This document shows positions 1,174 through 27,539 of a stretch of DNA of 64,000 nucleotides, piece after piece. The DNA comes from Tubulanus polymorphus (lineage: Eukaryota > Animalia > Nemertea): contig NC_134027.1 in assembly GCF_964204645.1 (NCBI RefSeq), positions 21,228,560-21,292,559 of the forward strand. Direction: 5' to 3'. A model generated the notes under the pieces. It was not told where the DNA came from. It was given only the letters and a program-made list of their open reading frames with translations, and made no database searches. The position numbers and the translations under genes are program-made. Numbering within the stretch: the first letter of the stretch is position 1; every line of letters starts with the position of its first letter.

Positions 1174-1506
1174 ATGACTAACAACGGTGCTCGTTGGACG
1201 GTGATCCCGGACGATGCAGAAGCGGTATTAGTGTGTGACATTTGTCTGTGTTCAGGACAGCGGGCCTGCATGCTGTGCGGTCTATGCCAGTACCGTCATC
1301 CGCTGTGCAATAATTGCACAGCAAGATTGATTTGTACTGGCATAGACAACAGCCTCCCAAATGCGGAAAATGTTATATCGTGTCCGTTCTGTCGGAACAC
1401 GATATATTGGGCCCGAGTAATGCGTCGCCATAGTCGCCTCGTCCGTGAACGAATAGCGAAAGCTAATAGAAGACGAAGAATGCAACAGCAGCAGCAGCGT
1501 CAATGA
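1174..1506 (+). CDS. Small intronless RING-finger protein, family A (intact)
   Basis: CDIC...CQYRHPLCNNC...CPFCR fits C3HC4 RING spacing; basic/poly-Q tail. Confidence 0.75.
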   Translation: MTNNGARWTVIPDDAEAVLVCDICLCSGQRACMLCGLCQYRHPLCNNCTARLICTGIDNSLPNAENVISCPFCRNTIYWARVMRRHSRLVRERIAKANRRRRMQQQQQRQ

Positions 1507-1565
1507 TTATGACGACGACGACGACGACGACGACGACGAAGCCCACGTGAAACCCCCCTTTAAAC

Positions 1566-1607
1566 AGTTCTTTTCAGAACTACTTCAATTTCCAAGAAAG
1601 AGCCAGT
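1566..1607 (+). terminator. Histone-mRNA-type stem-loop plus downstream element (HDE)
   Basis: AAAC-AGTTCT-TTTC-AGAACT-AC about 60 nt after the RING stop; CAAGAAAGAG at 1593-1602. Confidence 0.75.
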
Positions 1608-1649
1608 GTTTAAACGCCTCGCCTCGCTTTAAGCTTCAGTGTTTTTTTA

Positions 1650-1977
1650 TATTGAAGAGTTTTAAACAAAACGCGTTATTACCCCCTACTTCATTCATCA
1701 GATCGTCGACTATAATTAATGTACGTTTACTGCCATCTATTTTGTCGTAGAGTTCTCCGGAAAAACCCTCTACAAACTGCACTCCAAACTTTTCCAATTC
1801 ATTGAACATTTCGGGTTGCGCCTCCGCGTAACACCAATATATCTTATCGGGATTTTTTTCGACAAGATTCTCTGTTATAACTTTTTTGACAAACACACTT
1901 TTATCGGAACCCGTCGGTCCTGCGACTATCATCGTGAATGGGTGGGATAAGTATCTCGGGCCATTATACTCTGCCAT
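1650..1977 (-). pseudogene. Packaging (A32/FtsK-like) ATPase, N-terminal half
   Basis: HPFTMIVAGPTGSDKS (Walker A with G>D) and LIIVDDLM (Walker B); truncated at the junction with the RING cassette 3' region. Confidence 0.85.
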
Positions 1978-2204
1978 CTTAGTGTTTTAGTGTTTTAAGT
2001 GTTTTAGCTACGAATGAAAAACACTTTTAATAGAAACAAGGGGGTTGTCAATATTTTAAAAATACAGTACACGCATTTTATAGTTTACTAAATTCTTTAT
2101 TTTTCACTAAACGAGGTTCTAACAATTTTCAATTTTGAAAAAATGAGGTTTGAACTTTTTTAATAGGAAAATACTATACGGTTTTGAATATGTTTTCATA
2201 AACG

Positions 2205-2528
2205 CTATTTGACTTTTTTCACGATATACGTTCTTATATCGATATACGTTCTTTGAATGAGATATTTATGTTCCGGTTGAAGATCAATCACGTCTAAACA
2301 AAATATAGCGCCAACAATTTTATAAAGGAATCGCTCCGTCATATTTAATTCTTTCAAAACTAGGCATAATCCATCTGGTTCGTCGCAATTTACAAAATCA
2401 TTGGCTAAACGTTGAATATCTGTTAAATGCTTTTGACCGAGTAACACTTGGTGTATTCGCGTGTAATCCAAAATCGTGAACAATAGCCTTCGTAATAGCC
2501 CGTCCATTGTACTTGATAGTCGACCCAT
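2205..2528 (-). CDS. Hypothetical Maverick protein divergently oriented to the ZnF-pPolB gene
   Basis: 107-aa ORF; a decayed homologous copy lies at ~23300-23500 next to the second ZnF exon-1 copy. Confidence 0.5.
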   Translation of the reverse strand: MGRLSSTMDGLLRRLLFTILDYTRIHQVLLGQKHLTDIQRLANDFVNCDEPDGLCLVLKELNMTERFLYKIVGAIFCLDVIDLQPEHKYLIQRTYIDIRTYIVKKVK

Positions 2529-2599
2529 AATTGACTTGTAGACACAGATTAGTCTCTTTTAAAAAATAACACATATTCAATCTTTTTTTCTCACAGAAA

Positions 2600-5500
2600 A
2601 TGTATTCATGCCAATACTGCCCGTTGACCTTTGTCAATGAACTGGGTTTGGAACAACACCAACAACTTCACGTTGGTAAGAAGGGGTTCAAGTGCTTGAG
2701 CTGTTGCAAAGCATTTGCGTGTGCGCGCGATTTAACGCAGCACACGTTTATATGTATGACACCCCAACCGGTTCAACAACAGATGCCTGTAGCTTCGGTC
2801 AATCCGGTAAGTAGCTTACAATCGCTCATTTCATTAATTAATTATTTTAATGTATTCTTAAATACCCGGTTTATTTATTTATTTATTTATTTTTTCAGCA
2901 AATATGGGACTGCATAATATGTGGTCTTAACTTTGCTGACCAGCAAACACTGACACATCATCTGAGTTCCCACTTTGGAACTACCGATGGTTGGCAATGC
3001 GATACATGCGGCAAGTCGTTTACACGTAAAGATCACTTGACCCGGCATGCTAAAACGTGTAAGGGCTACGTTGCCAAACACGTATCACTACACTCGCAAC
3101 CAGGCACATCAGAAGCTAGACCGGTAAGTAGTGAAATTATGAGTTACTAAAGAAAGAAAAACAAATAAACAAACAAAAAGACCCGTTATTTATATTCTAT
3201 ATATTTGTCTATTGAAGGGACCCGAGTGCAGCAAATGTGGCAAGGTGTTTGGACGCGTAGACAACATGCGCCGACACGTCAAAACGTGTAAAGGATCCGT
3301 TGAACCACCGCGTGTAAACCCTCTACCGCGCGTAAACCCTCCGCGTGTGAACCCACCGCCACATCCTGATTGTCACCCCATTCACCCCTGGACGTCTAAC
3401 TCTGTAAGTAATCGAAATCATGAATTGCTAAAAAACTGTTATTCATCTTTAATATAATCCGGGTATTTTTTTCTATTTTCTAGCATTCTTGTGACATATG
3501 CGGCAAAACGCTATCTCGTAAGGATAACTTGGTAAGACACATGAGAACGTGTAAACCTAAAAAGACGTCGGCCTTACCACAGCCTCCACCACCACCAGCC
3601 GTACGGGAGTTTACATGCTCGCGATGTTCGGATTCGTTCCATTCGATCGCCGAGTTAAAACGTCACGGCGAGGTATGCGCTCCACGACCCTCAACATCGA
3701 AGCGTCCTATTGACGATATTGATGATGATGAGGAAGAAGTGCCGTGTTCGAAGCGCCCTCACTGTGAAAACCCCGACGAGATAATACGGGGCAATATTAA
3801 ACTGGTCAGGGTAAGTAATCGAATACACCAAAATTCGTTTAACATAATGACGAACAAAAATGATTAAAAAGAATGTTTCCATTATTTTACAGAACGGCGT
3901 ACAACACAGCAAAAAATTCAACATGAAAACTGAGTTGTACAAGGTTACCGTAATTCCGCGTGATGACCAGAATAACAAGACACTCGACGCGCAGGATACA
4001 CAGACAATCGTCCGAAATTACCTAACCGACGTTTTAGCGGCAATTAGTGAAATGCTGGATGCTCGTTCGAGTGACATGATTCGTATATCTATCGAACACG
4101 CGGATCTCAATGGAAACATTGAATTTCCATTCGTACCGTTGGACGAACTAACGGTCGAATATATACTCGATAGGCTAATACATGTTCTACAGTCGAATGA
4201 GGATTTGTCTTTGGATGGATTAATTTTCCATTGTACATTCATTCGAATGCCGCTAGGTGGTGTACGTCGTAAACGCGTCGAGGTAAACTTCAATCAGTTT
4301 AGACAGAACAAAAAATGCGTTGTCTCAATTGATAATGACGATGATTTGTCTCGCTAGGTCAATAGTGGTTGCAAAAGCGCGTGCGGACAATGATCCCCGA
4401 TATGATGTCATACGTAGATGCGACCGGCCTTTGCAGAAGAATGCGGCAATTGCCTTACACACGAATGCCGGTGTACCTCTAGGCAAGTGTGGATTGCGCG
4501 AATTGGATGTATTTGCGCAACAATTATCCGATTACTACGTATTAGTCGCAACTGGAGATGATAATGCGTATCATATCATTTACGAGAAAAACAACGCCGT
4601 GCTAAAAAATAAAGGAGCTGGGGGTAAAAAGATTGAACTTTTATATACGGCTGGACATTTTGACGTTATTACATCGATGTCTGCATTTACCTGTCGTACA
4701 TATTTTTGCTATTCTTGTAAAAAAGGGTATACGAATACAGAACGACACAGTTGTACAGATAAATGCAGACTTTGTTTAGGTAATTGCGGACAACAAAGGG
4801 GTAGTTATTTGTGTATAAAATGCAATATCTATTTCAAATCGGAAGCGTGTTTAGCCAGACACTGCAGACCAAGACCAGATGGGTCAAGCTTATGCGATTC
4901 AAAGGCTAGATGTTTACAATGCGGTTCTATTGTATCTAGAAAAAAACTTGACCCCAAATCTCACGATTGCGGGCAAAAATATTGCAGTTCTTGTAAAGAG
5001 CGAAAGCCTAGCGGTCATCTTTGTTACATCGGGGTCGCTAAAAGTCGGGATCATGTGGTATCTGAGGAACAGGGTAACCCTCATACACTAATCAACCCTT
5101 ATTTGGATGCTGAAAATGCGGGCGATGAGTTAAAATATAGAAAGTTCATCGCATTCGATTTTGAAACAACGACTGTGGAATCGAACCACGTTGTAGTACT
5201 GGGTATAGCACATAGAGTATGTCAGATGTGTAAATGGTCGAAACGGACCCCCGACTCGGTTTGCGATTATTGCGGTAAACACGAACACGTGTTTAAAACG
5301 GCCTCTGAACTCTGCGAGTGGTTGTTTACGGAAGAGAATAGGGGTGCCACTGTTTTCGCGCATAATTTTCAATCTTTCGACGGTTATTTCATTCTGCAAT
5401 ATTTGGTTTCACAAGGTATATTACCGGATATTATACCAAACGGTGGGAAAATAATGACTATGACCGTCAAGCATTTGGATATAAAGTTTTTAGATACTTT

Positions 5501-7687
5501 AAATTTTCTACCGATGAAACTCGCTAAATTACCCGAAACACTAGGTATTCCTGAGTTGAAAAAGGGCTATTTTCCGTATAAATTTTGCACTCGCGAGAAT
5601 ATTGATTACGTCGGACCTATTCCCGATATAGAATATTACAATCCCGACGGTCTAAGTTCGAGCGAAAGGTCTGATTTAATAAAGTGGCATAGCGATCGTC
5701 AGTCGGAAAATTTCATTTTTGACATGCAACGCGAGTTGGTCGAATACTGTCGTTCGGATGTGGATATTCTGATGCAATCCGTCGTAAATTTTCAACATCA
5801 ATTCTTTGCTCTTTCGGCTGTTGATCCATTTCGTAACAGCATCACTATAGCATCGGCGTGCAATGTGGCGTTACGAACAAACTTTTTGAAACCGACAACA
5901 ATAGGGCTAATCCCTCCGGGGGGTTATAAACCTAATGCAAAATTTTCCAAGATGGCAATTAACTGGTTGAAATGGGTATCCACAACGAATGACATACGAG
6001 TCCAACACGCGTTGAACGGCGGCGAAGTATCGATTGACCGCTTTAAAGTAGACGGTTATCACGCCGAATCCAATACCGTGTACGAATTTCACGGTTGTTT
6101 ATATCACGGATGCCCTAAGTGTTTCAAAAATCCGGATTTGATATCTCCGGTACGACCCGATCGTAAATTCGGTGAATTATATCAGGCCACATTAGAAAAA
6201 CATCTAAAATTAGGGCTATGGGGTACAATTTGGTGGAATTTTGGGAACACGAATATCGTGACTTGGTTAAAGAAAACCGCGCGTTTGCAGATTTTGTCAA
6301 AAAATCTGATATTCTCGATCCATTGCAACCACGTGACGCATTTTTTGGAGGTCGTACGAACGCGATAAAAATTTATCGCAAAGCCGAGGGTGAAGAAAAA
6401 ATCAAATACATCGACATATGCTCGTTATACCAGTACGTCAACAGTCGTTGCAGTTATCCAATCGGTCATCCGACTATCGTGACTGAAAATTTCCGCCATA
6501 TCGATAATTATTACGGGTTGATTAAGTGTAAGGTTTTACCGCCTCGGGGTTTATATCTACCCGTGCTCCCGTATAGATCGGGTGGGAAATTGACTTTTCC
6601 ATTGTGTCGAACGTGCGCTAATGAAAGCAATCAGCGCGAAAAGTGTCAACATTCGGCAAATGAGCGTTCGATAACGGGTACCTGGGTAACTTTAGAGGTA
6701 CAAAAAGCAGTGACACTTGGTTATAAGATATTAGATATATATGAAATTTGGAATTGGGAAACTAATGAAACGGGTTTATTCGAGGATTATATAGGAAAAT
6801 TCCTCAAAGTTAAAACCGAAGCCAGTGGTTGGCCGTGTAAAGATATGTCGCGCGACGAGAAGGATAAATTCATTTCCGATTATTTAGAAAGAGAGGGTAT
6901 CCAACTCGAAGAAGATAAGATTAAGAAAGCCAAGGGGATGCGAACAGTCGCGAAATTATGCTTAAATTCGATGTGGGGTAAACTCGGTCAAAACGAAAAT
7001 AAGACGACGGCCAAATATATTTCGGACCCCGGGGAATTATATAGAATGCTTTTGGATGAAACTTTAGAGATAAGCGATTTGTTGTTGTGTAATGACGAGG
7101 TGCTAAGAGTGCATTACAAAAAACGCGCAGAATTTGTCGAATCGACAAACAAAACCAGCGTCGCTTTAGCAGCTTTCACAACGGCTCATGCACGGCTTAT
7201 TCTCTATAGTTATATGGAGAAATTAGGGGAACGAACCCTATACACGGATACCGACTCCATTATTTATAGCGTGAAACCTGGTGAATGGGATCCGCCGACC
7301 GGGAATTTTTTGGGTGATATGACCGATGAATTGGTCGATAAATACGGGGAGGGGTCGTTTATTTCAGAATTTGTTTCGGCTGGACCCAAAAATTATGCAT
7401 ATCGGGTATTCAGTCCTAGAGATAATACATTTTCAACGGAATGTAAAGTTAAAGGGATCAATTTGAATTTTCGAAACAAACAAATTGTAAACTTTGGTTC
7501 CATGGTAGATATAATTGTCGAAGAAAAGTACGACCATCTTTACATATTAAACCCTGACAAAATTAATAGAAAGATCAAGGACTGTTCTATTTACAATAGA
7601 GACGAACGAAAAATATATCGCGCGGTTTATACTAAACGAGCTTTCGACCCCGCAGATCGGTATAACACGCTTCCGTACGGATATTGA
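2600..7687 (+). pseudogene. Spliced zinc-finger + protein-primed DNA polymerase B polyprotein (2 frameshifts)
   Basis: Exons 2600-2806, 2899-3123, 3218-3403, 3484-3810 and 3893-7687, all phase-0 GTAAGT..AG introns. Motifs FDFET, HNFQSFDG, YCRSDV, YIDICSLY, KLCLNSMWGK, YTDTDS, KNY, KVKG. Frameshifts near 4345 and 6200. AATAAA at 7754. Confidence 0.9.
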
Positions 7688-8172: not shown

Positions 8173-8250
8173 ACTCCTCCCCCTCCCCCTCCTCACTCCT
8201 CCCCCTCCCCCCTCCTCATTGAGGTCCTGAAGTGACATTTCCTAACTACT

Positions 8251-8552
8251 GACGGTCATCCCTGACTATGCTGAAGCTGTTTTGGAGTGTGATATTTGTC
8301 TGTGTATCAGACAGTGGGCCTGGCTGTTGTGTGACCCAAACTAATATCGGGATCCGCTGTGCAATTGCACAGCAAGGCTAATTTGCACCGGCATAGACTC
8401 AGGCAGGGAGAATGCGGAAAATATAATACATTGCCCGTTCTGCTGAAATGTAATCTATTGGGTCCGAGTTATGAATCGACACAGGCAAATGGTTCGTAAC
8501 CGGATAGAGGGCTAATCGGCGACGACAGCAACAACAGCAGCAGCGCCGATGA
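8251..8552 (+). pseudogene. RING family A, 5'-truncated by the element 1 terminus
   Basis: Homologous to 1174-1506 from codon T-V-I-P onward; contains stops and indels; followed by stem-loop 8595-8610. Confidence 0.8.
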
Positions 8553-8594
8553 TGATTATAACGACGAAGATGACCACATGCAACCCCTTTAAAC

Positions 8595-8637
8595 AGCCCT
8601 TCTAAGGGCTAACTTCAATTTCCAAGAAAGAGCCAGT
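8595..8637 (+). terminator. Histone-type stem-loop + HDE
   Basis: AGCCCT-TCTA-AGGGCT, CAAGAAAGAG at 8623. Identical hairpins at 11505-11520, 20926-20941 and 27076-27091. Confidence 0.75.
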
Positions 8638-9211
8638 GTTAACACGCCTCGCTTTATGCTTCAGTGCTTTTCTCCAAGTTTTAACAAAACTTTTTTTCCT
8701 CGGTGTTTGTATAAGCGGTATGTAATCATTTTTTGATCTATAACTAAACACCTGGCTAAATTTGAAATTTTTGTAGTGAGTAAAACAATCATTGGGCACT
8801 CCAGGGTTAACCAATTATAGTATAACCATTTTGGGTTTTGTTACATTAACAACAATTCAAAAGTGTTTATTGCTCATGCTACGGACACAATTAAGTGGTT
8901 AAAAACGTTAATGAAGTAAAGATGAAATCTATCTAACCAAACCGAATACAATTAAGAAGTTAAGGACCCATGATTCATCCATTGCAAAACAAACATCTGC
9001 CACGTATAGTAGCTATTGCGCACGTAATCTGGTCAGTACTCCCCATATGTGACGGAATATGCAGTATGAAAATTATGCAATTAAGTCATTTAGAAACCAA
9101 ACCGAATAGACAATTAAGTAGTTAAAGACCCATGATTCATCCATTAAAAAAAATCTAGTAGCTATTGCGTATAAAATACTCGTCAGAAAATCTCGGAAAT
9201 TCATATCCAAA

Positions 9212-9499
9212 ATGACGAACAAACCGGGAGCAAGATTTTTTCATTGTGACTACGCCAGAACACGGGAGTGCTGTGGGTGTCTTGAAAGACAGCGAGCTTT
9301 GGTGGCTTGTGAAAATCACCCCATGGCCAATTATATTTGTATGGGGTGTTTTGTTCAATTAGTTGAACTACGGCCGGAGAGTTAACATTATATTACGTGC
9401 CCAATGTGTCGCCTGGAATGGTACTTTGAGCTGATGAAGGCACGCCCTCCAACGTTGAGTGGTATGCATGGAATGCTACGTAAGGAAGACGACGAATAA
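9212..9499 (+). pseudogene. RING family B (one in-frame TAA)
   Basis: MTNKPGARFFHCDYARTRECCGC..CENH..CMGC..RPES*HYITCPMCR; followed by AGTTCT-TTTA-AGAACC-ACCC (9533-9548) and AGAAAGAG at 9563. Confidence 0.8.
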
Positions 9500-9880
9500 G
9501 AAGGGTTGTGAAACGCTACTGCAAAAACATACAGTTCTTTTAAGAACCACCCTAAAATTATGAGAAAGAGACAGTTTTGCTAAGCCCCTCGCTTTATACC
9601 TCAGTTTTTATCTTATCAAAGAATGCAATTAAGTAATTGAGAAACAAATACCATTGACCCATTGCTAGCATATGCCATCAAAAATATCTGGTCAGTACTC
9701 CCCGTACGTGACAGAATTTGCAGGATGAAAATTATGCAATTAAGTAATTTAGAAACCACACCGAATAGAGAAATTAAGGAGTTAAAGAACCATGATTCAT
9801 CCATCGAAAAACATCTACCATGTAAAGAAGCTATTGCGTATAAAATACTCGTCAGAAAATCCCGAAAATCCATATCCAAA

Positions 9881-10488
9881 ATGACGAAAAAACCGGGAGC
9901 AAGATTTTTTCATTGTGACTACGCGAGAACACGGGAGTGCTGTGGGTGTCTTGAAAGACAGCAAGCGTTGGTGGCTTGTGAAAATCACTTATATCAATTA
10001 TATTTGTATGGGGTGTTTTGTTCAATTAGTTGAACTACGGCCGGAGAGTTAACGTTATATTAAGTGCCCAATGTGTTGCCTGGAATGGTACTTTGAGCTG
10101 ATGAAGGCACGCCGTCCAACGTTGAGTGGTATGCATGAAGGGAGGAAGATCTATGCAGGGGGTGTGTTTGTGCACATTACAACTGATCAGATGCTGTGTT
10201 GTCATACACCAATATTTGATGAATGCAGCAACAAAATCAACCACTCGCAACATCACCAATGTATATATTGTAGTTCGATTCTAGACCTGACGTGCTGTGT
10301 GTGTTTGGAAGTGTGTGGATACACCGACAACGTGTTGTAGGAAGCAGATCCACGTTAAGTGTATAAAACGCTTAAAGAACACACGAGATTACGAATGTCT
10401 GTATTGCCGAAGATGTCAGCGATCCACTACCGTCGGAACAATGTCGTTCAATCCCGACATATACGATTCAGAACGCGTGATATTCTAA
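9881..10488 (+). pseudogene. RING family B fragment fused to multi-RING family D fragment
   Basis: B homology to ~10139, then PCCHTPIC..CIYC..TCCVC..CCRKQIHVKC..CLYCR homologous to 19527-20090. Half hairpin GGTCTT-TTTC-GAG at 10521. Confidence 0.7.
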
Positions 10489-10710
10489 TATACGCGTATA
10501 TTATGTATACGAAGAAAAATGGTCTTTTTCGAGTACCCTCGATATGTGACGGAATAGGACAGTATGAAAATTACGCAATTAAGTAATTTAGAATCAAAGA
10601 CAATTAAGAAGTTAAAGACCCATGATTCGTCCATTGCAAAACATCTGCCGCATAAAGTAGCTATTGCGTATAATTTACTTGTCAGAAGATCTCGAAAATC
10701 AATATCCAAA

Positions 10711-11091
10711 ATGTCTGGTGCAAGATACATGAGCTTTCCTGATGGCGCAGAGGCCGTTGTCTAATGCGGGGTATGTTTAGAGACTGGTCTACAGAAACTT
10801 GACGTGTGGAAGCTGCGTCTCAGCTATCGTACGAAGAAATCTTGAACTGGAGTGTGAAGACGCAAATGATGTATTTTTGTGCCCGTTCTGCAGAAACGTG
10901 ATAAACAGGGCACATATGTTTGCGGAGTATACATGCAAAGAAGAATGCCGAACTCGTCGAAACTGAAGACCACGTCATCAGAGACGTCAGCAGCAGCAGC
11001 AGCAGCGCCGATAATAATGATAACAACACTGCCGAAGAATACGATACCATATACACGCTACCATATCCTCAAAAAGGTCCTTTTAAGGGCC
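10711..11091 (+). pseudogene. Divergent RING family A' with near-canonical histone stem-loop
   Basis: MSGARYMSFPDGAEAVV*CGVC...CPFCR; AAAAA-GGTCCT-TTTA-AGGGCC-AC at 11076-11091. Confidence 0.75.
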
Positions 11092-11144
11092 ACTTCAATT
11101 TTCAAATGGTTTACTAAATTCTTTAACGAAAATTCATAACGAAA

Positions 11145-11459
11145 ATGACTAACAACGGTGGTAGATGGACGGTCATCCCCGACAACGCCAAACCTGTTTT
11201 TGAGTGTGATATTTGTCTGTGTATCGGCCTTGCTGTCGTGTGACCAATGCTAATATCGGGATCCGCTGTGCACAGCAAGGCTAATTTGCACCGGCATAGA
11301 CTCAGGCAGGGAGAATGGGGAAAATATAATACATTGCCCGTTCTGCCGAAATGTAATCTATTGGGTCCGCGTTATGAATCGACATAGGTGAATGGTTCGT
11401 AAACGGATAGAGAGGACTAATCGGCGTTGACAGCAACAACATCAGCAGCGCCAAGATGA
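11145..11459 (+). pseudogene. RING family A copy
   Basis: Homologous to 1174-1506 with deletions and stops; stem-loop at 11505, HDE at 11533. Confidence 0.8.
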
Positions 11460-11804
11460 TTATGACGACGACGATGACGATGACCACATGCAACCCCTTT
11501 AAACAGCCCTTCTAAGGGCTAACTTCAATTTCCAAGAAAGAGCCAGTGCCAACAAGCCTCGCCTCACCTCGCTTTATGCTTCTGTGCTTTTCTCCAAGTT
11601 ATAACAAAATTTTTTTCCTCGGTGTTTGTATTAGCGGTATGTAATCATTTTTTGATCTATAACTAAACACCTGGCTAAATTTGAAATTTTTGTAGTGAGT
11701 AAAACAATCATTGGGCACTCCAGGGTTAACCAATTATAGTATACCCATTTTGGATTTTATTACATTAACAACAATTCGAAAGTGTTTATTTCTCATGCTA
11801 CAGA
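11239..11804 (+). repeat. 566-bp direct duplication flanking element 2 (second copy 20660-21225)
   Basis: TGTGACCAATGC...CATGCTACAGA abuts the left TIR, and the same 566 bp starts immediately after the right TIR; roughly 10 substitutions by eye. Confidence 0.9.
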
Positions 11805-11944
11805 AGTAGTTAAGTAGGGTCACTTTGGGACCGAGTGAGGAGTGAGGAGCAGTGAGGAGCAATGACGTCATCGCTGACGTCATGGATGACGTCATGGATG
11901 ACGTCATTGATTACATCATGTTGGTGGGGGAAAACGTGTTTGGG
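11805..11944 (+). repeat. Left TIR with four TGACGTCA (CRE/ATF) palindromes
   Basis: TGACGTCA at 11863, 11875, 11887 and 11899; reverse complement at 20521-20659. Confidence 0.9.
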
Positions 11945-12103
11945 CGAGAATATCGATAACAATAAAGCGAAGCCATAAAACGTGTTCGGGCCTGATATTT
12001 GTGGACAATAAAAACGCGATATAAATCATGTTTAGACGTCATTTAACTCGGAGACTTCGGGCGGTTAACATCGGATCTCTTCACATCGACTATCGCGGAT
12101 ATC

Positions 12104-13953: not shown

Positions 13954-15122
<1,169 letters not shown>

Positions 15123-15127
15123 CTTGT

Positions 15128-15524: not shown

Positions 15525-16054
15525 ATTAATATATTTTTCTTTTTAAAATGTAAAACAAGATTAACTTTTCCTTTTTTAAAAACAGGTATTTTACCCGATT
15601 CTCTTCTTATAAAGACTTCTATAGTCTGAAAATTACTCCTTTGCACTGGAAAATATTGTAATTTGTTAAACTCTTTTCCAATAACCTTTCCAAAATTTAT
15701 CGTGTTTAAATGTACCATACGCAAAAGATTTGCGCTCTGATCGCCGACTAGTCGGGGTTCTATAACATCGCTATATATCATCAAATTATGATAGTCGACG
15801 TTTATATCGACACATCTAGACGCTGTGACTTCGATGTATTTGTAAATAGTTTTGGTACCATTACTATCTACAAATGGTCCATTTTTCTTCGAACCCTGAC
15901 GAAGGTCGTTAGGTATATCGTTTACCGGTATACCAGATTTGAAGCCTAAAATCCACGCTATATCGTTCGTAAAAGTTAACGAACACTCGTCGTAAAACTT
16001 CACATTAACTTTATGACTTAATAACGACTGACTTTGAACAGTTCCGAAAAACAA
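15521..16054 (-). pseudogene. Minor capsid (penton) protein, C-terminal part
   Basis: IYSDVIEPRLVGD..LLRMV..QYFPV..FQTIEVFIR..LVLHF; 5' part lost at the junction with pPolB. Confidence 0.8.
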
Positions 16055-19000
16055 AGAAATCGGTCATCAGTATAAATAATGATGACGATTTATGCCTAGC
16101 GAGGGCGCTAGTCGTGGCGAAGGCGCGAGCCGATAATGACCCTCGTTATAACATAATTCGTAAATGCGAAAAATCACCGCCACGAGAAGCCGCTCTCGCA
16201 TTGCACCAGGCGACAGGAGTCCCCACCGGAAAGTGTGGAATCCCCGAGCTGGACAAAATGGTGAAGGCTAAACTTGACGATTATTATGTTTTAGTGGTGA
16301 CTGGAGACGATAACGCATACCACGTATTGTACAAAACGATAAAAAAATATTAACCCAGGATTCAAATGCGAAGAAAATAATCCTTTTATACACGAATGGC
16401 CACTTCGACGTCGTATCGTCAATGGCTGCATTTACGTGTCGTGTATATTTCTGTTTCTCGTGTAAAAAGGATATAATACAGCCGAAGCGCATCGTTGTAA
16501 TGACAAATGTTCCTTATGTCGTGGCGATTGCGCTCGAGAACAGAGGGGCAATTATTTTTGCAATCGTTGCAATATGTACTATAAATCGGAAGCGTGTTTT
16601 GCCAATCATTTAAGACCTTTGGCAACAGGTCAAAGCCTTTGTAATTCGCGGGCACGGTGTATGCGTTGTGGCTCTATTATTCCCCGATCGAAACTGGATC
16701 CTAAATTACACGATTGCGGTAAAAAGTATTGTTCCTCGTGTAAAGAAAAGCTACCTATAGGCCATCTTTGTTGTATTGGGGTGACAAAAGGTCAGGTGCA
16801 CGTGGTCCCCGAAGGCGATAAAAACACGCATCAATTAATCAATCCTTATTTAGACGCGAAAAGCGAAGAATTCAAAATTAGAAAATTTATAGCGTTTGAT
16901 TTCGAAACGACTACTGTGGATTCGAACCACGTTGTAGTATTAGGTATAGCACACAGAACGTGTCAAATGTGTAAATGGTCAAGGCGTACTCCAGACTCGT
17001 CATGCGACCATTGCGGTAAACACGAACACGTGTTCAAGTCGGATATCGATTTCTGCAAATGGCTGTTTACTGAGGAGAATAAGGGTTCCACTGTTTTTGC
17101 GCACAATTTTCAATCGTTTGACGGCTATTTTATTTTAAGATATTTGGTTTCGCAAGGCATACTACCGGACATAGTACCAAACGGTGGTAAAATTATGACG
17201 ATGTCTATCCAACATTTGGACATTAAATTTTTGGATACTTTGAATTTCCTACCTATGAAACTTGGTAAATTACCGGAAACATTAGGTATTCCGGAATTGA
17301 AAAAGGGTTTTTTCCGTATACTTTTTGTACTGGAGAAAATATAAATTATGTAGGACCGATTCCGGATTTACATTATTATAATCCTGATGGCATGAGTTCC
17401 AGTGAGAGGAACGAATTTGTAAAGTGGCATACAGAGCGCCGGTCTGAAAATTTCGTTTTTGATATGCAACACGAGTTGATAGGGTATTGTCGGTCCGATG
17501 TTGACATATTAATGCAATCGGTCATTAATTTCCAACATCAATTCTTTGCACTTACTTCAGTCGATCCTTTTAGAAATTCAATTACCATTGCGTCGGCATG
17601 CAATCTAGCGTTAAGAACAAATTTCCTAAAATCGGAAACAATTGGCTTAATACCCCCAGGCGGTTATAGACCCAATGCCAAGTTTTCAAAAATGAGCATC
17701 CGTTGGTTAAGATGGCTATCTGAAAATAATAATATTCGAATTCAACATGCGTTGAATGGCGGTGAAGTAACTATTGACCGCTATAAAGTGGATGGTTACC
17801 ACGCCGAATCAAACACCGTGTATGAATTTCATGGCTGTCTGTACCACGGATGCCCTGAATGTTTTAAAAATTCAGATATGCAGTCGCCGGTGCGGCCCGA
17901 TAAAAAATTTGGTGAACTTTATCAGGCTACGTTAGAAAAGAGTGCAAAGATTAGGGCCCTTGGATATAATTTGGTGGAATTTTGGGAACACGAATATTGT
18001 AACTTGGTGAAAGAAAACCGTGTTTTTGCCGATTTTGTAAAAGAAGTAGATATTTCTGACCCGTTATTACCGCGTGACGCATTTTTCGGCGGTCGAACTA
18101 ATGCAATCAAAATCTATCATAAGGCCGAAGATGATGAAAAAATTAAATATATTGACATATGTTCGCTATACCCGTACGTTAATAGTCGTTGTAGCTATCC
18201 AATAGGTCACCCAACAGTTATAACTGAAAATTTCGGTGATATCAAAGATTATTACGGGTTGATTAAATGCCGAATTTTACCACCTCGGGGCTTATATTTA
18301 CCCATCCTTCCATACAGAGCCAATGGCAAATTAACCTTTCCTTTGTGTCGCTCGTGCGCTGAAGATAGTAATCAATGCGAAAGGTGTCGCCACTCGGAAG
18401 ACGAACGTGCTATTACCGGAACGTGGGTCAGTTTAGAGATCCAAAAAGCCGTTGAATTGGGATACCGTATTATCGGTATATTCGAAATTTGGAATTGGGA
18501 ACGTAGCGAAACCGGATTATTTGCAGACTATATAAGAAAATTTCTAAAAGTAAAAACCGAAGCTAGCGGGTGGCCATCTCCCGATATGACTCGCGCCGAA
18601 AAAGACCAATTTCTATCCGATTATTTCGAGCGCGAGGGTATCCGTCTCGAAGAAAATAACATAAAGAAGGCGAAGGGCATGCGAACTGTCGCCAAAATAT
18701 GTTTAAATAGCATGTGGGGTAAACTCGGTCAAAATGAAAAAAAAACCACTGCTAAATATATTTCAGACCCCGGTGAAATGTACAGCATGCTTTTAGACGA
18801 TAGTTTGGAGATACAAGATTTACTGGTGTGTAACGAAGAGGTGTTAAGGGTGCACTACAGAAAACGCGACGAATTTGTCGAATCCTCCGGTAAAACTAGC
18901 GTCGCCTTAGCCGCGTTCGCAACGGCGCATGCTCGACTAATTCTCTATAGTTATATGGAGAAACTAGGGGATCGAACCCTTTACACGGATACCGACTCAA

Positions 19001-19335
19001 TCATTTACACCGTTAAACCTGCTCAATGGGATCCGCCAACTGGAAACTTTTTAGGGGATATGACCGATGAGTTGGCAGATAAATACGGAGATGGTGCCTA
19101 TATTTCGGAATTCGTTTCGGCCGGTCCGAAAAACTATGCATTCCGTGTTTTCAGTCCGCGTGACAATAAATTCTCATCGGAATGCAAAGTGAAAGGAATT
19201 AATTTGAATTTTAGAAATAAACAAATAGTCAACTTTAAATCAATGGTTGATATTATAGTCGGTGAAAAATATGATCATTTGTACGTTTCCATTCCAAACA
19301 AGATAAATCGAGACATCAAAAAATGTTCCATTAAT
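16055..19335 (+). pseudogene. pPolB copy 2 (frameshifted, 3'-truncated)
   Basis: ORFs 16114, 16574 and 17392 are collinear with copy 1; YIDICSLYP, KICLNSMWGK, YTDTDS; homology stops after RDIKKCSI. Confidence 0.92.
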
Positions 19336-19526
19336 TCGCTTTTAGAGGATTTGATTCTTTATCTCATTCTATTACTCGCTGTGGACCGTGCAACCCTAAT
19401 ATTAACCCACTACCGACTACGACGATGGCTTTTTCCAGCGACTTTTGGAAAAAAGAACAGGATGTGGAAAGAAGCGAAATTCCAATTTTTTATACCGCTA
19501 CCGGTGATGTTAAATGTCACTGCTGA

Positions 19527-20090
19527 ATGAAACAACTGGGTCACGATGAGGATCCATTTGATTTCGTCACAAACTGTTGCGAGAAGATCATTTGCTTCAG
19601 GTGTTTCAGTGAGGCAGCGGCCGACCAGATCGACCAAGAACATATTATTTGCCCGCTTATGCGCATAAGCGGGTTTGAAGAACACCTCGATGAATTTTTT
19701 CAAGCTGGCTGTTTTGGACAAGTACCCGGCTTGGATAGGGACGAAAACGTTTGTCGTGCATGCGCGCTCCGATACACGACCGGACAGATGCCTTGTTGCA
19801 GCGAACCTGTGTGCGAAGAGTGTGTCGTACCGTTGAATGAATCGTCATCGTGCCAGTCATGTCAACAAAACATAGATTTAACTTGTTGTATTTGCTACGA
19901 ACCATGCATCGATAAGCCAATGAGGTGTTGCAACAAACAAATACATGTAGCATGTATTAAAAAACTGAAAAATGTGCGGGGTTTCGAATGCCCTAATTGC
20001 CGAAATGCGTACAGTGATCCCATACCGTCGATGTTTCCGAGGGTCATGCCATCGTATAATGTCCAAAACGTATACTTCGACGCTTACTAG
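19527..20090 (+). CDS. Multi-RING/Cys-rich protein, family D (probably 5'-truncated)
   Basis: Three RING-like units, the last CCIC..CCNKQIHVAC..CPNCR; decayed paralogs at ~10140-10488 and ~21945-22462. Confidence 0.6.
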   Translation: MKQLGHDEDPFDFVTNCCEKIICFRCFSEAAADQIDQEHIICPLMRISGFEEHLDEFFQAGCFGQVPGLDRDENVCRACALRYTTGQMPCCSEPVCEECVVPLNESSSCQSCQQNIDLTCCICYEPCIDKPMRCCNKQIHVACIKKLKNVRGFECPNCRNAYSDPIPSMFPRVMPSYNVQNVYFDAY

Positions 20091-20170
20091 TCGTCGCGGC
20101 TACATAGCAGGATATTTAAAAAACGGTGTAAAATATTTGTAAAATAATTATCTGTATAAATAATGTAATA

Positions 20171-20277
<107 letters not shown>

Positions 20278-20375
20278 TTGTAATTAATTAATAGTTCATT
20301 TTGTTTTAGTGGTGACTAGAGGAGATCGTCATTTTTGTTTTAGTGGTGACTAGAGGAGAATAATAAAACGCGCAA

Positions 20376-20440
20376 TTAAAAACCATATGGAATCGTGTTA
20401 AATCAGTTAACCGGATCAAAAGCCCTTTTTAGTGTATACG
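20376..20440 (-). pseudogene. Inverted pPolB C-terminal fragment
   Basis: Minus strand reads VYTK-RAFDPVN*FNTIPYGF*, versus VYTKRAFDPADRYNTLPYGY* of copy 1. Confidence 0.7.
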
Positions 20441-21450
20441 AAATAATTACAAAAGTCATTGTTCTATCGGATACAATGGCTCGGCTATTATAAACCCATT
20501 GTTTTAACATCATCGTTATTCCCAAACACGTTTTCCCCGCCAACATGATGTAATCAATGACGTTATCCATGACGTCATCCATGACGTCAGCGATGACGTC
20601 ATTGCTCCTCACTGCTCCTCACTCCTCACTCGGTCCCAAAGTGACCCTACTTAACTACTTGTGACCAATGCTAATATCGGGATCCGCTGTGCACAGCAAG
20701 GCTAATTTGCACCGGCATAGACTCAGGCAGGGAGAATGGGGAAAATATAATACATTGCCCATTCTGCCGAAATGTAATCTATTGGGTCCGCGTTATGAAT
20801 CGACACAGGCGAATGGTTCGTAAACGGATAGAGAGGACTAATCGGCGTTGACAGCAACAACAGCAGCAGCGCCAAGATGATTATGACGACGACGATGACG
20901 ATGACCACATGCAACCCCTTTAAACAGCCCTTCTAAGGGCTAACTTCAATTTCCAAGAAAGAGCCAGTGCTAACAAGCCTCGCCTCACCTCGCTTTATGC
21001 TTCTGTGCTTTTCTCCAAGTTATAACAAAACTTTTTTCCTCGGTGTTTGTATTAGCGGCATGTAATCATTTTTTGATCTATAACTAAATACCTGGCTAAA
21101 TTTGAAATTTTTGTAGTGAGTAAAACAATCATTTGGCACTCCAGGGTTAACCAATTATAGTATACCCATTTTGGATTTTATTACATTAACAACAATTCGA
21201 AAGTGTTTATTTCTCATGCTACAGACACAATTAAGTGGTTAAAAACATTAATGAGATAAATATGAAATCTGGTCAGTACTCCCCATATGTGACGGAATAT
21301 GCAGTATGAAAATTATGCAATTAAGTAATTTAGAAACCAAATCGAATAGACAATTAAGTAGTTAAAGACCCATGATTCATCCATTAAAAACATCTAGTAG
21401 CTATTGCGTATAAAATACTCGTGAGAAAATCTCGAAAATCCATATCCAAA

Positions 21451-21738
21451 ATGACGACCAAAGCAGAAGCAAGATTTTTTCATTGTGACTACGCCAGAAC
21501 ACGGGAGTGCTGTGGGTGTCTTGAAGGACAGCAAGCATTGGTGGCTTGTGAAAATCACCCCATGGTCAATTATATTTGTATGGGGTGTTTTGTTCAATTA
21601 GTTGAACTACGGCCGGAGAGTTAACATTATATTAAGTGCCCAATATGTTGCCTGGAATGGTACTTTGAGCTGATGAAGGCACGCCGTCCAACGTTGAGTG
21701 GTATGCGTGAAATGCCACGTAAGGAAGACGATGAATAA
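21451..21738 (+). pseudogene. RING family B copy
   Basis: Same in-frame TAA after RPES; hairpin at ~21772 disrupted by a short duplication; HDE at 21811. Confidence 0.75.
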
Positions 21739-22692
21739 GAAGGGTTGTGAAACGCTACAGCAAAAACATACGGTTCTTAGAACCACCCTAAAGAACCACC
21801 CTAAAATTCTCAGAAAGAGACAGTTTTGCTAAGCCCCTCGCTTAATACCTCAAAGAATGCAATTAAGTAATTGAGAAACAAATACCATTGACCCACAACA
21901 ACAACAACAGCAGCGCCGACGATGATGACGACGACGATGACCGAGGTGTTGTAACAAAATCATTTGCGATATCTGTTTTGATAACGCGGCTGAGGATCAG
22001 ATGGATCAGGCAAGAATCATGTGCCCAATGATGAGAATCATTGGGTTCGAAGAACATGTTGACTCTGTTTTCAGCAATGGCTGTACCAGTTCAGTTCCTG
22101 CGCTCGGTCGGGAGGAAGATGTATGCAGGGGGTGTGTTTGTGCACCCATCAACTGATCAGATGCCGTGTTGTCATACACCAATATGCGATGAATGCAGCA
22201 ACAAAATCAACCACTCGCAACATCATCAATGTATATTTTGTAGTTCGATTCTGGACCTGACGTGCTGTGTGTGTTTGGAAGTGTGTGTGGATACACCGAC
22301 AACGTGTTGAAGGAAGCAGATCCACGTTAAGTGTATAAAACGCTTAAAGAACACACGAGATTACGAATGTCTGTATTGCCGAAGAGATGTCAGCGATCCA
22401 CTGCCGTTGGAACAATGTCGTTCAATCCCGACATATACGATTAAGAATGCGTGATATTTTAATATACGCATAACTTATGTATACGAAGAAAAATGGTCTT
22501 TTTCGAGTACCCTCGATATGTGACGGAATGGGACAGTATGAAAATTACGCAATCAAGAAATTTAGAATCCAAACCGAATAGACAATTAAGTAGTTAAACC
22601 CCCATGATTCGTCCATTGCAAAACATCTGCCGCGTAAAGTAGCTATTGCGTATAAAATACTTGTCAGAAGATCGCGAAAATCAATATCTAAA

Positions 22693-23099
22693 ATGTCTGG
22701 TGCAAGATACATGAGCTTTCCCAATGGCGCAAAGGTCGTTATCTAATGCGGGGTATGTTTAGAGACTGGTCAATGGTACTGGCTACTATGTAGCAAGTGT
22801 CAATACCGAAACTTGACGTGTGGAAGCTGCGTCTCAGCTATCGTACGAAGAAATCTTGAACTGGAGCATGAAAACGCAAATGATGTATTTTTGTGCCCTT
22901 TCTGCAGAAACGTGATAAACTGGACACGTATGTTTGCGGAGTATATATGCAAAGAAGAATGCCGAACTCGTCGAAACCGAAGACGACTTCATCAGGGACG
23001 TCAGCAGCAGCAGCGCCGATAATAATGACAACACTGCTGAAGAATACAACTACGACGACCTACGCCTACCATATCCTCAAAAAGTTCCTTTTGAGGGCC
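22693..23099 (+). pseudogene. RING family A' copy with degenerate stem-loop
   Basis: In-frame TAA before CGVC; GTTCCT-TTTG-AGGGCC-AC at 23084-23099. Confidence 0.75.
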
Positions 23100-24437: not shown

Positions 24438-24439
24438 AC

Positions 24440-24690
24440 GAACTTAAACGACAAATTGTAGGCGTGACCGGGATTTGAAAAAAGAGGGCCGTGGTGCCTA
24501 TGACATGAAGGTAGAAAAAAACACCAATATTATCTGTCTGTCATGGCTTGACAATAAAGTCGTCAACTTAGCGTCCTCTTACATTGCTGCTCATCCAATA
24601 GGGAAAGCTCTGTGATGGGATAAAAGCCAGAAAAAAACATGTTGATGTTGACCGACCTGAGATGATTGCCAAGTACAATCAATACATTGC
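24440..24690 (+). mobile_element. piggyBac transposase fragment
   Basis: LKKRGRGAYD..WLDNKVVNLASS..RPEMIAKYNQ. Confidence 0.75.
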
Positions 24691-24719
24691 AATAGATGTA
24701 ACATCTATTACAAGGGACA

Positions 24720-25275
24720 GGAGTGCTACGCCAATCATTTGAAAAGCTTGGCTAGCGGGATGTCGTTGTGCGACAGTCGAGCAAGGTGTAAGGCATGCGG
24801 TCAATTTGTAAAGCGCGAAAAAATCGCCTCAGCTGACCACGACTGTGGTATTAAGTATTGGTATTAAGTAGGCGGGTGTCTTGATAAACCCGTACCTCCA
24901 GGGAGGGAAAGAATTCGATGCTGAGTTATTGAAAGTGAAGAAATTCATAGCGTTTGATTTTGAGACTACGACAACAGAAGATTCGATTCATAAGGTCATC
25001 TTTGGAATGGCACACCATTGTTGCCAAGAGTGCAAGTTGTCGACTATAATAACGAGCGATTCAGAATGTGCCCATTGTGGTAAGAACGAATTCAAGTTCC
25101 AAAATATAACTGAATTCTGCGAGTGGTTGTTCAATGACCAAAATAGAGGGGTAACCGCATTCGCCCACAACTTTCAATCCTTCGACGGATATTTTAATTT
25201 GAAGTATTTACTAGACCAGGCAATTAGACCTGAGATTATTCCGAACGGCGGTAAAATCATGTACATGTACATCCA
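24720..25275 (+). pseudogene. Fragment of a more divergent pPolB (exonuclease region)
   Basis: KFIAFDFETT, FAHNFQSFDGYF, IIPNGGKIM. Confidence 0.85.
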
Positions 25276-25919
25276 TTTGCATTTTCATTTCAGATATTAT
25301 TGTAATGTATCTACTTTGTAATTATCTTTCAATGCAATAAAGAACTGAAATATTAGTATCATATTTTATATATTAATCTAATGTGTTGACTCTGTAATTA
25401 TCTTTTTTTGATGCAATAAAGAACTGAAATATAAGTATTATATTTTATATATTAATCTAATCCATTGAGTTTCTAATTATCTTTTTTTGATGCAATAAAG
25501 AACTGAAATATTAGTATTACATTTTCGTGAAGATGCGCACAATGTATTGCCGAGCCTGTTCTGTCGAAATGTAGTCTACTGGGCACGGATGTTGGCGGAA
25601 TCGATTAGGCGTTGAAAACATTTTCCTTAAACAATCAACCAGCATAGAACATGTCAACTTTGAAGATAATGACTGGTCTAACAGATTTGCTATTTGCAAA
25701 TATTGTAAAACGACAATTACATACGGTAGTTTTCGAGTAATGACCTGCTGTAGAAAACTGATTTGGAAGATTGTTGGTTGGTAAACACTCGGTGGTTAAG
25801 CCTTCAGCATAATTTCAAATGCCCTATCGAGGATTGTGATGCGAAAAAAGACTGCTATCGATGCCACGGACAGGAGGATTTGTTTCATTGTTGCGGTAAA
25901 ACTATATATTGAACATTAA

Positions 25920-26340
25920 ACGAACTCAAAGCGACAAATTGTAGGCTAAAGAGTGACCAGGATTTGAAAAAACTCAAAGCGACAAATTGTAGGCTAAAGA
26001 GTGACCAGGATTTGAAAAAAGACGGCCATGGTGCCTATGACATGAAGGTAGAAAAAAACACCAATATTATCTGTCTGTCATGGCTGGACAATAAAGTGGT
26101 CAACTAAGCGTCATCTTATATTGCTGCTCATCCAATAGGGAAAGCTTGGCGATGGGATAAAAGCCAGAAAAAACATGATTGCCCAGTACAGTCAATTCAT
26201 GGGTGGCATAGATCTGATGGATATGTGTATTGCCATGTATAAAACAAATCTGAGATCACAAAGATGGTACCTTTATGTATTCTGGCACACAATAAATAAA
26301 GCTAACTGTTGTCAATTCATGGTTACTGTACAGGCGTGTA
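25920..26340 (+). mobile_element. piggyBac transposase fragment (longer copy)
   Basis: WLDNKVV.. then YSQFMGGIDLMD..RSQRWYLYVFWH (third catalytic Asp region). Confidence 0.8.
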
Positions 26341-26723
26341 AAATCTTATTTCTAAGTGAAGATAATGTTGAATTTTTTTTTTGCAAATGCCCAAGTTTTC
26401 ATATATGACAACTCCCCAAATTTTGGCCCCCCAGCAGATATATTCGATTTAGCGGTATGTAATCATTTTTTGTTCTATAACTAAAAACCTGGCTAAATTT
26501 AAAATTTTTGTAGTGAGTAAAACAATCATTGGGCACTCCAGGGTTACCCAATTATAGTATACCCATTTTGTGTTTTATTACATTAACAACAATTTGAGAG
26601 AAAACCGAATAGATAATTACGTAGCTAAAGACCCATGTTTTGTCCATTGAAAAACATCTGCAGTGTAAAGTAGCTATTGCGTATAAAATACTTGTCACAA
26701 GATCTTGAAAATTCATAACGAAA

Positions 26724-27033
26724 ATGACTAACGGTGGTAGATGGACGGTCATTCCTGACAATGCCAAAGCTGTTTTGGAGTGTGAGTGGAGTGTTTTGGA
26801 GTTGTCTGTGCACCAGACAGCAGGCCAGGTGGTTGTGTGACCAATGCCAATATCGGCATCCGCTGTGCACAGAAAGGCTAATTTGCACCGGCATAGACTC
26901 AGGCAGGGAGAACGCGGAAAATATAATACATTGCTCGTTCTGCCGAAATGTAATCTATTGGGTCCGTGTTATGAATCGACACAGGCGAATGGCTAATCGG
27001 CGACGACAGCAACAACAGCAGCAGCGCCCATGA
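26724..27033 (+). pseudogene. RING family A copy (frameshift by short duplication)
   Basis: Promoter TATA at 26682; stem-loop 27076-27091. Confidence 0.8.
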
Positions 27034-27539
27034 TGATTATAACGACGAAGATGACCACATGCAACCCCTTTAAACAGCCCTTCTAAGGGCTAACTTCAAT
27101 TTCCAAGAAATGTTCAATTTCCAAGAAGAAGAGTTAACACGCCTCGCTTTATGCTTCAGTGCTTTTCTCCAAGTTTTAACAAAACTTTTTTTCCTCGGTG
27201 TTTGTATAAGCGGTATGTAATCATTTTTTGATCTATAACTTAACACCTAGCTAAATTTGAAATTTTGGTAATGAGTAAAACAATCATTGGGCACTCCAGG
27301 GTTAACCAATTATAGTATAACCATTTTGGGTTTTATTACATTAACAACAATTCAAAAGTGTTTATTGCTCATGCTACGGACACAATTAAGTGGTTAAAAA
27401 CGTTAATGAGATAAAGATGAAATCTTTCTAACCAAACGGAATACAATTAAGTAGTTAAGGACCCATTCATCCATTGAAAACATCTAGTAGCTATTGCGTA
27501 TAAAATACTCGTCAGAAAATTCGAAAATCCATATCCAAA

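Follow-up and report, generated by a model that had tools for sequence, protein, structure and literature searches.

Small intronless RING genes in a nest of decayed Mavericks (Polintons), which occupies positions 1-30,800 of the 64,000-nucleotide (nt) stretch of Tubulanus polymorphus DNA analysed here (the window), end in the manner of replication-dependent histone genes. Behind their stop codons stands a hairpin of histone type, followed at fixed spacing by a histone downstream element (HDE), AGAAAGAG-N-CAGT. Judged by their sequence, these ends would function like histone gene ends, yet they belong to Maverick remnants and not to histone genes. An earlier examination of the same DNA (the sequence-only reading) had proposed that the Maverick lineage co-opts processing by SLBP and U7 small nuclear RNA (snRNA). 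That proposal is partly supported: the anatomy and histone-like hairpin/HDE spacing, the covariation of the stems, the contrast in AATAAA signals with neighbouring Maverick genes, the retention in two subfamilies, the location within terminal inverted repeats (TIRs) and a match to a high-copy host sequence all speak for it. We consider it probable that the RING mRNAs of an active ancestral element were cut by SLBP/U7 and left non-polyadenylated, and we likewise favour U7-type processing of the Maverick RING messages. Cell-cycle timing as the purpose of such an end is a more tentative proposal, which we hold with some doubt.

The RING and Cys-rich gene copies, with their promoter and 3' signals, are as follows.
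1050..1173 (+): common promoter of the A, B and D families, with TATAAAA at 1132-1138
1174..1506 (+): RING A1, 110 amino acids (aa), intronless, open frame; Pfam RING_XB3 E 5e-4, below cut-off
1566..1581 (+): histone-type stem-loop A1, 6 pairs, 26.5 bits
1595..1607 (+): A1 HDE AGAAAGAG-N-CAGT, 13 nt past the stem
1622..1629 (+): CCTCGCTT box after the A1 HDE, from sequence comparison
8240..8654 (+): RING A2, broken, 5' end missing; stem-loop 8595-8610, HDE 8625-8632, box 8647
9167..9594 (+): RING B1, promoter and frame 9212-9499 with internal stop; stem-loop 9533-9548, HDE 9563-9570, box 9587
9836..10536 (+): truncated RING B0 fused to broken Cys-rich C1; half hairpin 10521, unverifiable
10666..11091 (+): RING D1, broken; perfect stem-loop 11076-11091, 27.2 bits; HDE lost at a junction
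11144..11574 (+): RING A3, broken; stem-loop 11505-11520, HDE 11535-11542, box 11567
13449..13805 (+): RING E1, 118 aa, open frame, inside Maverick copy 2; own unrelated promoter (CCAAT, TATA-like)
13845..13860 (+; whole signal 13845..13912): degenerate stem-loop E1, pair 2 broken; HDE 13875-13882 with CAGT, box 13905
20660..20995 (+): RING A4, 3' part only; stem-loop 20926-20941, HDE 20956-20963, box 20988
21406..21843 (+): RING B2, internal stop; hairpin 21772 broken by a duplication (19.2 bits), HDE 21812, box 21836
22056..22510 (+): Cys-rich C2, broken; half hairpin 22495, unverifiable
22648..23099 (+): RING D2, internal stop; degenerate stem-loop 23084-23099, then a junction to ATPase-interior sequence
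26679..27149 (+): RING A5, frameshifted; stem-loop 27076-27091, HDE disrupted, box 27142
27496..27730 (+): RING B3, promoter and 5' part only, without 3' signal

Every hairpin site of the sequence-only reading lies where it was placed, on the + strand, and the distances that we measured from stop to hairpin (59, 33, 61, 39 and 42 nt) bear out the range of 33-61 nt. A1-A5 and D1 show the determinants of a histone stem-loop, namely a G2-C pair, a top U-A pair and U at loop positions 1 and 3, on a stem of six pairs, and B1 shows them on one of five; they are incomplete in E1 and D2, and the B2 hairpin is disrupted. The B1 hairpin at 9533 exists, but its bottom pair is mismatched in the window copy; the pairing base occurs in 11 of 18 reads of another individual. 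The hairpin at 13845, which the earlier list did not set among the degenerate copies, has a broken G2-C pair, and ATTAAA lies 8 nt upstream. The sites at 10521 and 22495, previously described as half copies, consist of no more than a 5' arm with its loop and have no Rfam match.

Chance occurrence was estimated in region 1-30,800 on both strands with 100 dinucleotide shuffles. A hairpin was required to have six pairs, G2-C, a top T-A pair and T at loop positions 1 and 3, and an HDE was defined as AGAAAGAG with at most one mismatch at least 9 nt downstream. Seven such hairpins were observed against a shuffle mean of 0.43 (maximum 4), and five were followed by AGAAAGAG, against 0.00 in the shuffles. 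When five pairs were allowed, 11 were observed against 3.6, and six with an HDE against 0.01. One hairpin, at 13937, was rejected, since part of it falls in the region of the downstream box and a GA microsatellite serves as its apparent HDE; without it the counts with an HDE fall to four and five, respectively. The independent hairpin types number only about four to five, because A2-A5 are near-duplicates. The Rfam scan recommended by the sequence-only reading gave 18 matches at E<=10, eight of them to Histone3, although none reached the gathering score of 34. These eight (region 1-31,000; 19.2-27.2 bits) all lie on the + strand behind RING copies. The remaining matches, to snoRNA and miRNA families, were far below their cut-offs and were treated as chance.

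The HDE stands 13-14 nt past the stem in three families, as had been noted, in copies A1-A4, B1 and E1, but it is lost or displaced in D1, D2, A5 and B2. Family D has no HDE at 11076 or 23084, where ATPase-interior sequence is joined about 15-30 nt past the stem; nor is the HDE at 27076 (A5) intact, a short duplication having disrupted it. Further downstream, eight of the ten copies whose hairpin is complete or nearly so have a CCTCGCTT box 19-32 nt past the HDE or its remnant (at 1622, 8647, 9587, 11567, 13905, 20988, 21836 and 27142). It is in neither D copy, and the window holds one more occurrence at 51084.

The statement that no AATAAA intervenes was confirmed for each of the 12 listed sites, over an interval that begins 200 nt upstream and extends to 450 nt downstream. 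Five RING ends combine a hairpin with the absence of AATAAA (background 0.16 per 200 nt), whereas the two PC4 genes, the gene for protein-primed DNA polymerase B (pPolB) and a 187-aa gene of the same elements carry AATAAA 0-76 nt past the stop and no hairpin.

Covariation of the stems was likewise upheld: in an alignment of ten ends, both-sided changes occur in four of the six pairs. Paired bases fill 95% of the stem cells, against 84% in shuffles (0 of 500 reach 95%) and 17-65% when the alignment is slid, figures that are inflated by the relatedness of the copies and include a B2 row that spans a duplication. A1 and A2 are nearly identical in their flanks, and their stems differ by two double changes. 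At a greater distance, the RINGs of Maverick copies 1 and 2 share 29% over 41 aa and the DNA of promoter and open reading frame (ORF) can no longer be aligned. Both copies nevertheless keep the hairpin, AGAAAGAG-N-CAGT and the CCTCGCTT box despite this divergence of the RING.

A high-copy counterpart of the signal emerged when raw DNA reads of another individual were mapped to window positions 1480-1760. Between 1570 and 1608 the reads pile up to a depth of about 420-450, compared with 30-85 in the sequence to the left and right. One homogeneous family with other flanks, alike in 35 of 39 bases, accounts for about 300 of the reads over this block. This family shares with RING A1 the block from loop to HDE, with the HDE and CAGTG, and differs at 1578, 1581, 1589 and 1594; it has a six-pair stem with a G-C base and the same CCTCGCTT box downstream. 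From 1934 Mb of reads and a genome size of 313-358 Mb, as given in the available part of PMC8468679, we estimate roughly 50-75 copies. The RING signal thus matches what by sequence is a high-copy 3' end of the host. The copy number fits a histone array, which is a candidate identity for the family. In some 41 further reads an A1-type hairpin stands behind different upstream sequence, which means that this hairpin exists in additional copies. Of the sequencing runs X7 and X8, the first, presumed to be RNA, yielded two short partial pieces and the second none.

In order to compare the Maverick signal with real histone ends, metagenome sequences were scanned for a hairpin followed after 11-16 nt by AGAAAGAG, which gave 65 loci. 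They contain 35 distinct invertebrate core-histone ends, in which the hairpin lies 16-59 nt past the stop (33-61 in the Maverick) and an AAAGAG-type box lies 13-18 nt past the stem in 29 of 35 (15-16 in the Maverick copies), ranges partly set by the search, as the control loci were found with the same pattern. Family A has two oddities, the A1-T16 bottom pair and the TCTA loop, and each of them is also found among real histone genes (L054, L056). Ten real invertebrate histone ends score 30.3-36.3 bits and only three of them reach the Rfam cut-off of 34; as seven of ten fall below it, a score under the cut-off does not disqualify a hairpin. One of the histone clusters also contains a U2 snRNA gene (L056:675-867).

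The literature does state, as the sequence-only reading said, that the pathway is exclusive to histones, but many of the metagenome loci appear not to follow this rule. Of the 65 loci, 48 have six-pair stems; a histone gene lies in the 450 nt upstream of 25 of these, and none lies there in the other 23, some of which are truncated or chance. In view of the histone-free sites, the Maverick case probably belongs to a broader use of the histone pathway that is as yet undescribed. Six of the loci (L014, L026, L030, L033, L035 and L042) encode one non-histone family of helical proteins with acidic tails (89-201 aa, without Pfam match), and a perfect histone hairpin and HDE stand behind each member. 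A perfect hairpin and HDE with no histone upstream also occur at L016, L018, L028, L040, L041, L046, L058, L063, L071, L072 and L077. L040 has two tandem hairpins, and in L041 and L046 the site follows an orphan ORF, one of 651 aa or a relative of it. A tblastn search with 14 window proteins matched none of the 65 loci, and no second Maverick example was found there.

Two further loci are viral or virus-like. L064 is a virus-like contig of dense intronless ORFs without informative Pfam match, in which a 71-aa ORF behind a TATA box (L064:7997-8260, - strand) ends in a hairpin and HDE of 34.6 bits, above the Rfam cut-off. About 50 nt of this signal are nearly identical to an H2B end (L055:2563-2607) whose contig shares its id prefix. 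L079:730-825 belongs to Hubei toti-like virus 10, a double-stranded RNA virus (RdRP_4), and holds three histone-type 6-bp/TTTC hairpins within 100 nt, with differing, fully paired stems, in the 5' leader upstream of ORF1; the middle one is identical to the window 1566 hairpin. A role as an SLBP-binding translation element is possible. Both loci hint at independent cases of viral use. The pattern scans of IMG/VR gave, besides this toti-like virus as the sole remaining match, two matches inside phage ORFs, from separate scans, which we attribute to chance; one further scan gave none.

The proteins encoded ahead of the Maverick hairpins are RING-like and not histones, so these are not replication-dependent histone genes. 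A RING is recognized by eight Cys/His ligands in cross-brace spacing, with a Pro and an Arg next to the final two ligands. A1, E1, B1 and D2 all contain C-x2-C, C-x2-[CH]-x6-C-x2-C and C-P-x-C-R, which is the RING ligand pattern. The Pfam RING matches have E values of 2.5e-4 to 1e-2, all below cut-offs, and a search of PDB returned the TRIM32 RING at E 0.003 with a zinc-ribbon protein ranked first. A single-sequence model had a mean confidence (pLDDT) of 40. An alignment-based model (pLDDT 52) had no Foldseek match at E<=0.001 (best E>=0.04), the lists being rich in RINGs yet non-significant. No relatives at E<=0.001 were found for A1 or for a six-row RING alignment, and a search of 1.84 billion representatives, a collection from which the exact sequences are absent, returned unrelated repeats only. 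The closest Atlas clusters of both open RINGs are viral (scores 0.91 and 0.93), with taxa known for few of their members. The RING assignment is accordingly weak but consistent, and E3 activity is putative. The TATA promoter of families A, B and D has eight copies in the window, 83-88% alike over 120 nt. In all four family-B copies (9212-9499, 9881-10139, 21451-21738 and 27540-27730) one shared codon inside the RING is a stop, three times TAA and once TGA.

Positions 1-30,800 contain pPolB pieces, a packaging-ATPase fragment and PC4-like genes, all found with Pfam, as well as a minus-strand module. The main features apart from the RING copies are these.
24..662 (+): PC4-like gene next upstream of RING A1, in Maverick copy 1; Pfam PC4 E 1e-7; AATAAA 59 nt past the stop, no hairpin
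1636..2558 (-): broken packaging ATPase, convergent to RING A1; Pfam Adeno_IVa2 E 4.5e-5, Pox_A32 E 3e-3
2600..3867 (+): C2H2 zinc-finger gene, apparently intron-split, from the Pfam scan
3860..7687 (+): pPolB of copy 1, frameshifted pieces; Pfam DNA_pol_B_2; AATAAA 66 nt past the stop
11805..20659 (unstranded): Maverick copy 2, bounded by TIRs (133-144 nt, 97%, ends AGTAGT...ACTACT), from inverted-repeat comparison
12276..12927 (+): PC4-like gene of copy 2, broken, from Pfam; AATAAA 0, 76 and 133 nt past its end
14376..16063 (-): convergent module, candidate capsid region, without Pfam or PDB match
16009..19530 (+): fragmented pPolB of copy 2; 97-100% identical to proteins of Tubulanus polymorphus and 81% to the pPolB of copy 1

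The PF03175 matches of pPolB (E 4e-23 and 3e-26; 1713 relatives at E<=1e-30) identify a Maverick polymerase, the protein differing by 19% between the copies, and the ATPase fragment matches Adeno_IVa2 with 22.9 bits against a cut-off of 21. TIRs were found for copy 2 alone (11805-11944 and 20521-20659, 97%), and RING E1 sits within them. Both copies have the same gene order, from PC4 through a RING gene to the convergent minus-strand module, and in copy 1 the ATPase frame terminates about 30 nt past the HDE of RING A1. In the Mavericks of this worm lineage, the accessory slot that separates PC4 from the convergent packaging module holds small intronless RING genes. An expanded RING array of families A, B and D with Cys-rich C lies between and after the two copies. 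The module at 14376-16063 is one that we take to resemble Polinton capsid genes.

No retroviral-type integrase or cysteine protease was matched by Pfam in the scanned window ORFs, which make up roughly half of the 62 stop-to-stop frames, and the elements are internally deleted. Maverick insertions are expected to show a 6-bp target-site duplication. Copy 2 is flanked by a 577-nt direct duplication (11239-11815 and 20660-21236, 97.7%) and shows no short target duplication. At the end of copy 2, 19527-20090 is the open 187-aa Cys-rich gene, with several CxxC pairs, a polyadenylation signal downstream and no Pfam match. Fragments of a piggyBac-like transposase (DDE_Tnp_1_7 E 1e-5) at 24040-24641 and 25525-26408 are mixed among the Maverick pieces. 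Elsewhere the window holds an eIF-6 exon (47460-47678), a tRNA (53993-54064) and a pair of similar 128-aa host ORFs without Pfam match, 49741-50127 and 54949-55335, both on the - strand.

We propose the following course of events, modelled on the SLBP/U7/CPSF73 pathway as presented in the available portions of 10.64898/2026.10.14.759114, PMC5435866 and PMC9169081. In an active element, RNA polymerase II would initiate at the TATA promoter of the RING gene. By analogy with the known pathway, SLBP would bind the hairpin of the transcript, U7 would pair with AGAAAGAG-N-CAGT, and CPSF73 would cut about 5 nt past the stem, leaving a poly(A)-free RING message. This message would be translated and destroyed on the histone schedule, in dividing cells and oocytes, so that a putative ubiquitin ligase would be confined to replicating cells, in which the element is able to copy itself and integrate. 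The element might also gain from tight termination short of the opposite-strand packaging gene, with less double-stranded RNA. On a broader scale, invertebrate viruses and virus-like elements may exploit the histone mRNA pathway as a module of gene regulation, with Maverick ubiquitin-ligase messages SLBP/U7-processed, poly(A)-free and timed to S phase or oogenesis; we regard this as a serious prospect, though not quite a probable one.

Several observations weigh against the proposed processing. The RING copies in the window are decayed remnants: 12 of the 14 RING/Cys-rich copies are broken, and the two with open frames, A1 (1174-1506) and E1 (13449-13805), have weak hairpins, the good hairpins standing behind broken genes. 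The A1 hairpin has -3.7 kcal/mol and a top-pair probability of 0.02 in the precursor, where it is predicted to be out-competed by pairing with its own HDE, and of 0.83 once cut; 33 of 35 histone controls have a top-pair probability of at least 0.5. The E1 hairpin, with pair 2 broken and ATTAAA upstream, hardly forms. In bits, the Maverick hairpins reach 19-27, against 30-36 for the ten real histone ends. Three other Maverick gene ends (minus strand, broken genes) have neither AATAAA nor hairpin, the RING identity is based on weak matches, and the high-copy family may be another mobile or non-histone family. The evidence for processing is drawn from DNA sequence, the host U7 and histone genes lying outside the data. 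In Drosophila, maternal histone mRNAs reportedly indicate that an SLBP-bound hairpin is no guarantee of a poly(A)-free end. Among 11 distant pPolB loci from IMG/VR (23-38% identity), which contained 13 scattered loose hairpins, none had a hairpin and HDE behind a gene, so the trait is not general to Polintons; a search of IMG/VR with a single pPolB query found nothing. As to the weak A1 hairpin, HDEs that are buried in hairpins and opened by SLBP binding occur in real histone precursors, according to the available part of PMC1635294, which softens this objection without removing it.

The same folding results bear on a different explanation, in which SLBP binding by the hairpin, or a longer hairpin formed together with the HDE, serves stability, translation or termination, while the message is still polyadenylated or otherwise ended and U7 is not used. 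The best fold of A1 is indeed a long hairpin that absorbs the HDE (z -2.6), and ATTAAA adjoins the E1 hairpin; SLBP-dependent polyadenylated histone mRNAs are said to exist in Drosophila, and the three hairpins in the 5' leader of the toti-like virus stand where a role in cleavage is impossible. It is harder to see on this account why the HDE is fixed at 13-14 nt in three families with unlike spacers, or why no AATAAA follows any hairpin within 450 nt, and the burial of the HDE has its counterpart in histone precursors that open on SLBP binding (available part of PMC1635294). We judge it unlikely.

The element might also have taken up a host gene with a histone-type end once and copied it along with the RING array, with no gain to itself; the donor could have been a histone gene tail or a host non-histone RING gene with an end of histone style. 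Positions 1570-1608, identical in 35 of 39 bases to the high-copy host family, with which the box is also shared, would be expected from such a capture, as would promoters in A, B and D that are copies of one another, and the metagenome scan found non-histone genes with such ends in other DNA. Passive copying does not readily account for compensatory stem changes between close copies, nor for the signal of copy 2, kept though ORF and promoter have diverged past alignment; the nearest Atlas clusters of both RINGs, moreover, are viral (0.91, 0.93), with taxa known for few members. A capture of this kind appears decidedly improbable. A chance resemblance multiplied by local duplication has in its favour that many copies arose by recent duplication, with as much as 97.7% likeness across 577 nt, and that none reaches the Rfam cut-off. 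It is already largely refuted, and hardly credible, given four to five distinct hairpin sequences that all lie behind RING stops with the histone determinants or nearly so, HDEs at histone spacing in three families, and near-identity to a high-copy host signal with a canonical stem.

If SLBP/U7 processing of the Maverick RING messages is correct, they would constitute the first class of non-histone viral mRNAs to be produced by the U7 small nuclear ribonucleoprotein, and the histone exclusivity of the SLBP/U7 signal would be broken by a virus-like element's own genes, which would be surprising to specialists. It would offer a concrete route by which a mobile element senses oocytes or the S phase of its host, along with a clue to the need of some viruses for SLBP. 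Such messages would be missed by poly(A)-based transcriptomes and annotation.

Among the matches listed in searches of the full text of PMC and bioRxiv, we found no viral or transposon example of a histone-type mRNA end, and the available part of PMC13525598 contains no relevant case. The closest known system is the metazoan histone 3' end itself (RF00032 and HDE), with which the Maverick copies share the 6-bp stem and 4-nt loop, G2-C, the top U-A pair and loop U1/U3 in the better copies, a hairpin 33-61 nt past the stop with an A-rich 5' flank, AGAAAGAG at 13-14 nt, an intronless gene and the lack of AATAAA. They differ in that the gene encodes a RING protein, the stems often start with A-T and score 19-27 rather than 30-36 bits, and an extra CCTCGCTT box is present, a feature known here from comparison of the copies.

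As elements, the Mavericks of the window resemble the alpha-adintoviruses and Polintons of PMC8502044 in their pPolB (PF03175, 44% to the Rhodactis adintovirus PolB), packaging ATPase and TIRs, and the RING genes recall the adintovirus 'Oncoid' slot of small CXXC-rich accessory genes upstream of PolB described in the same source. Unlike those viruses the window elements are decayed, and the available portion of that paper mentions no histone-type 3' signal, RING, PC4 or polyadenylation. In the accessible text of PMC11417402, U7 snRNA represses HERV1/LTR12 through HDE-like motifs, another mobile element with U7-complementary motifs; there, however, U7 serves host defence by repression and no stem-loop is described in that text, whereas the Maverick has a full hairpin and HDE at its own gene ends. 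Human cytomegalovirus is also a DNA virus that makes use of SLBP, although the mechanism is unknown there and the part of PMC9169081 available mentions no viral stem-loop mRNA. The six-member acidic-tailed family (L014 and relatives) comes nearest in arrangement, with a small non-histone ORF followed by a hairpin and HDE at histone spacing; its proteins are helical and acidic-tailed rather than RINGs, and the 14 window proteins matched no Maverick genes near its members.

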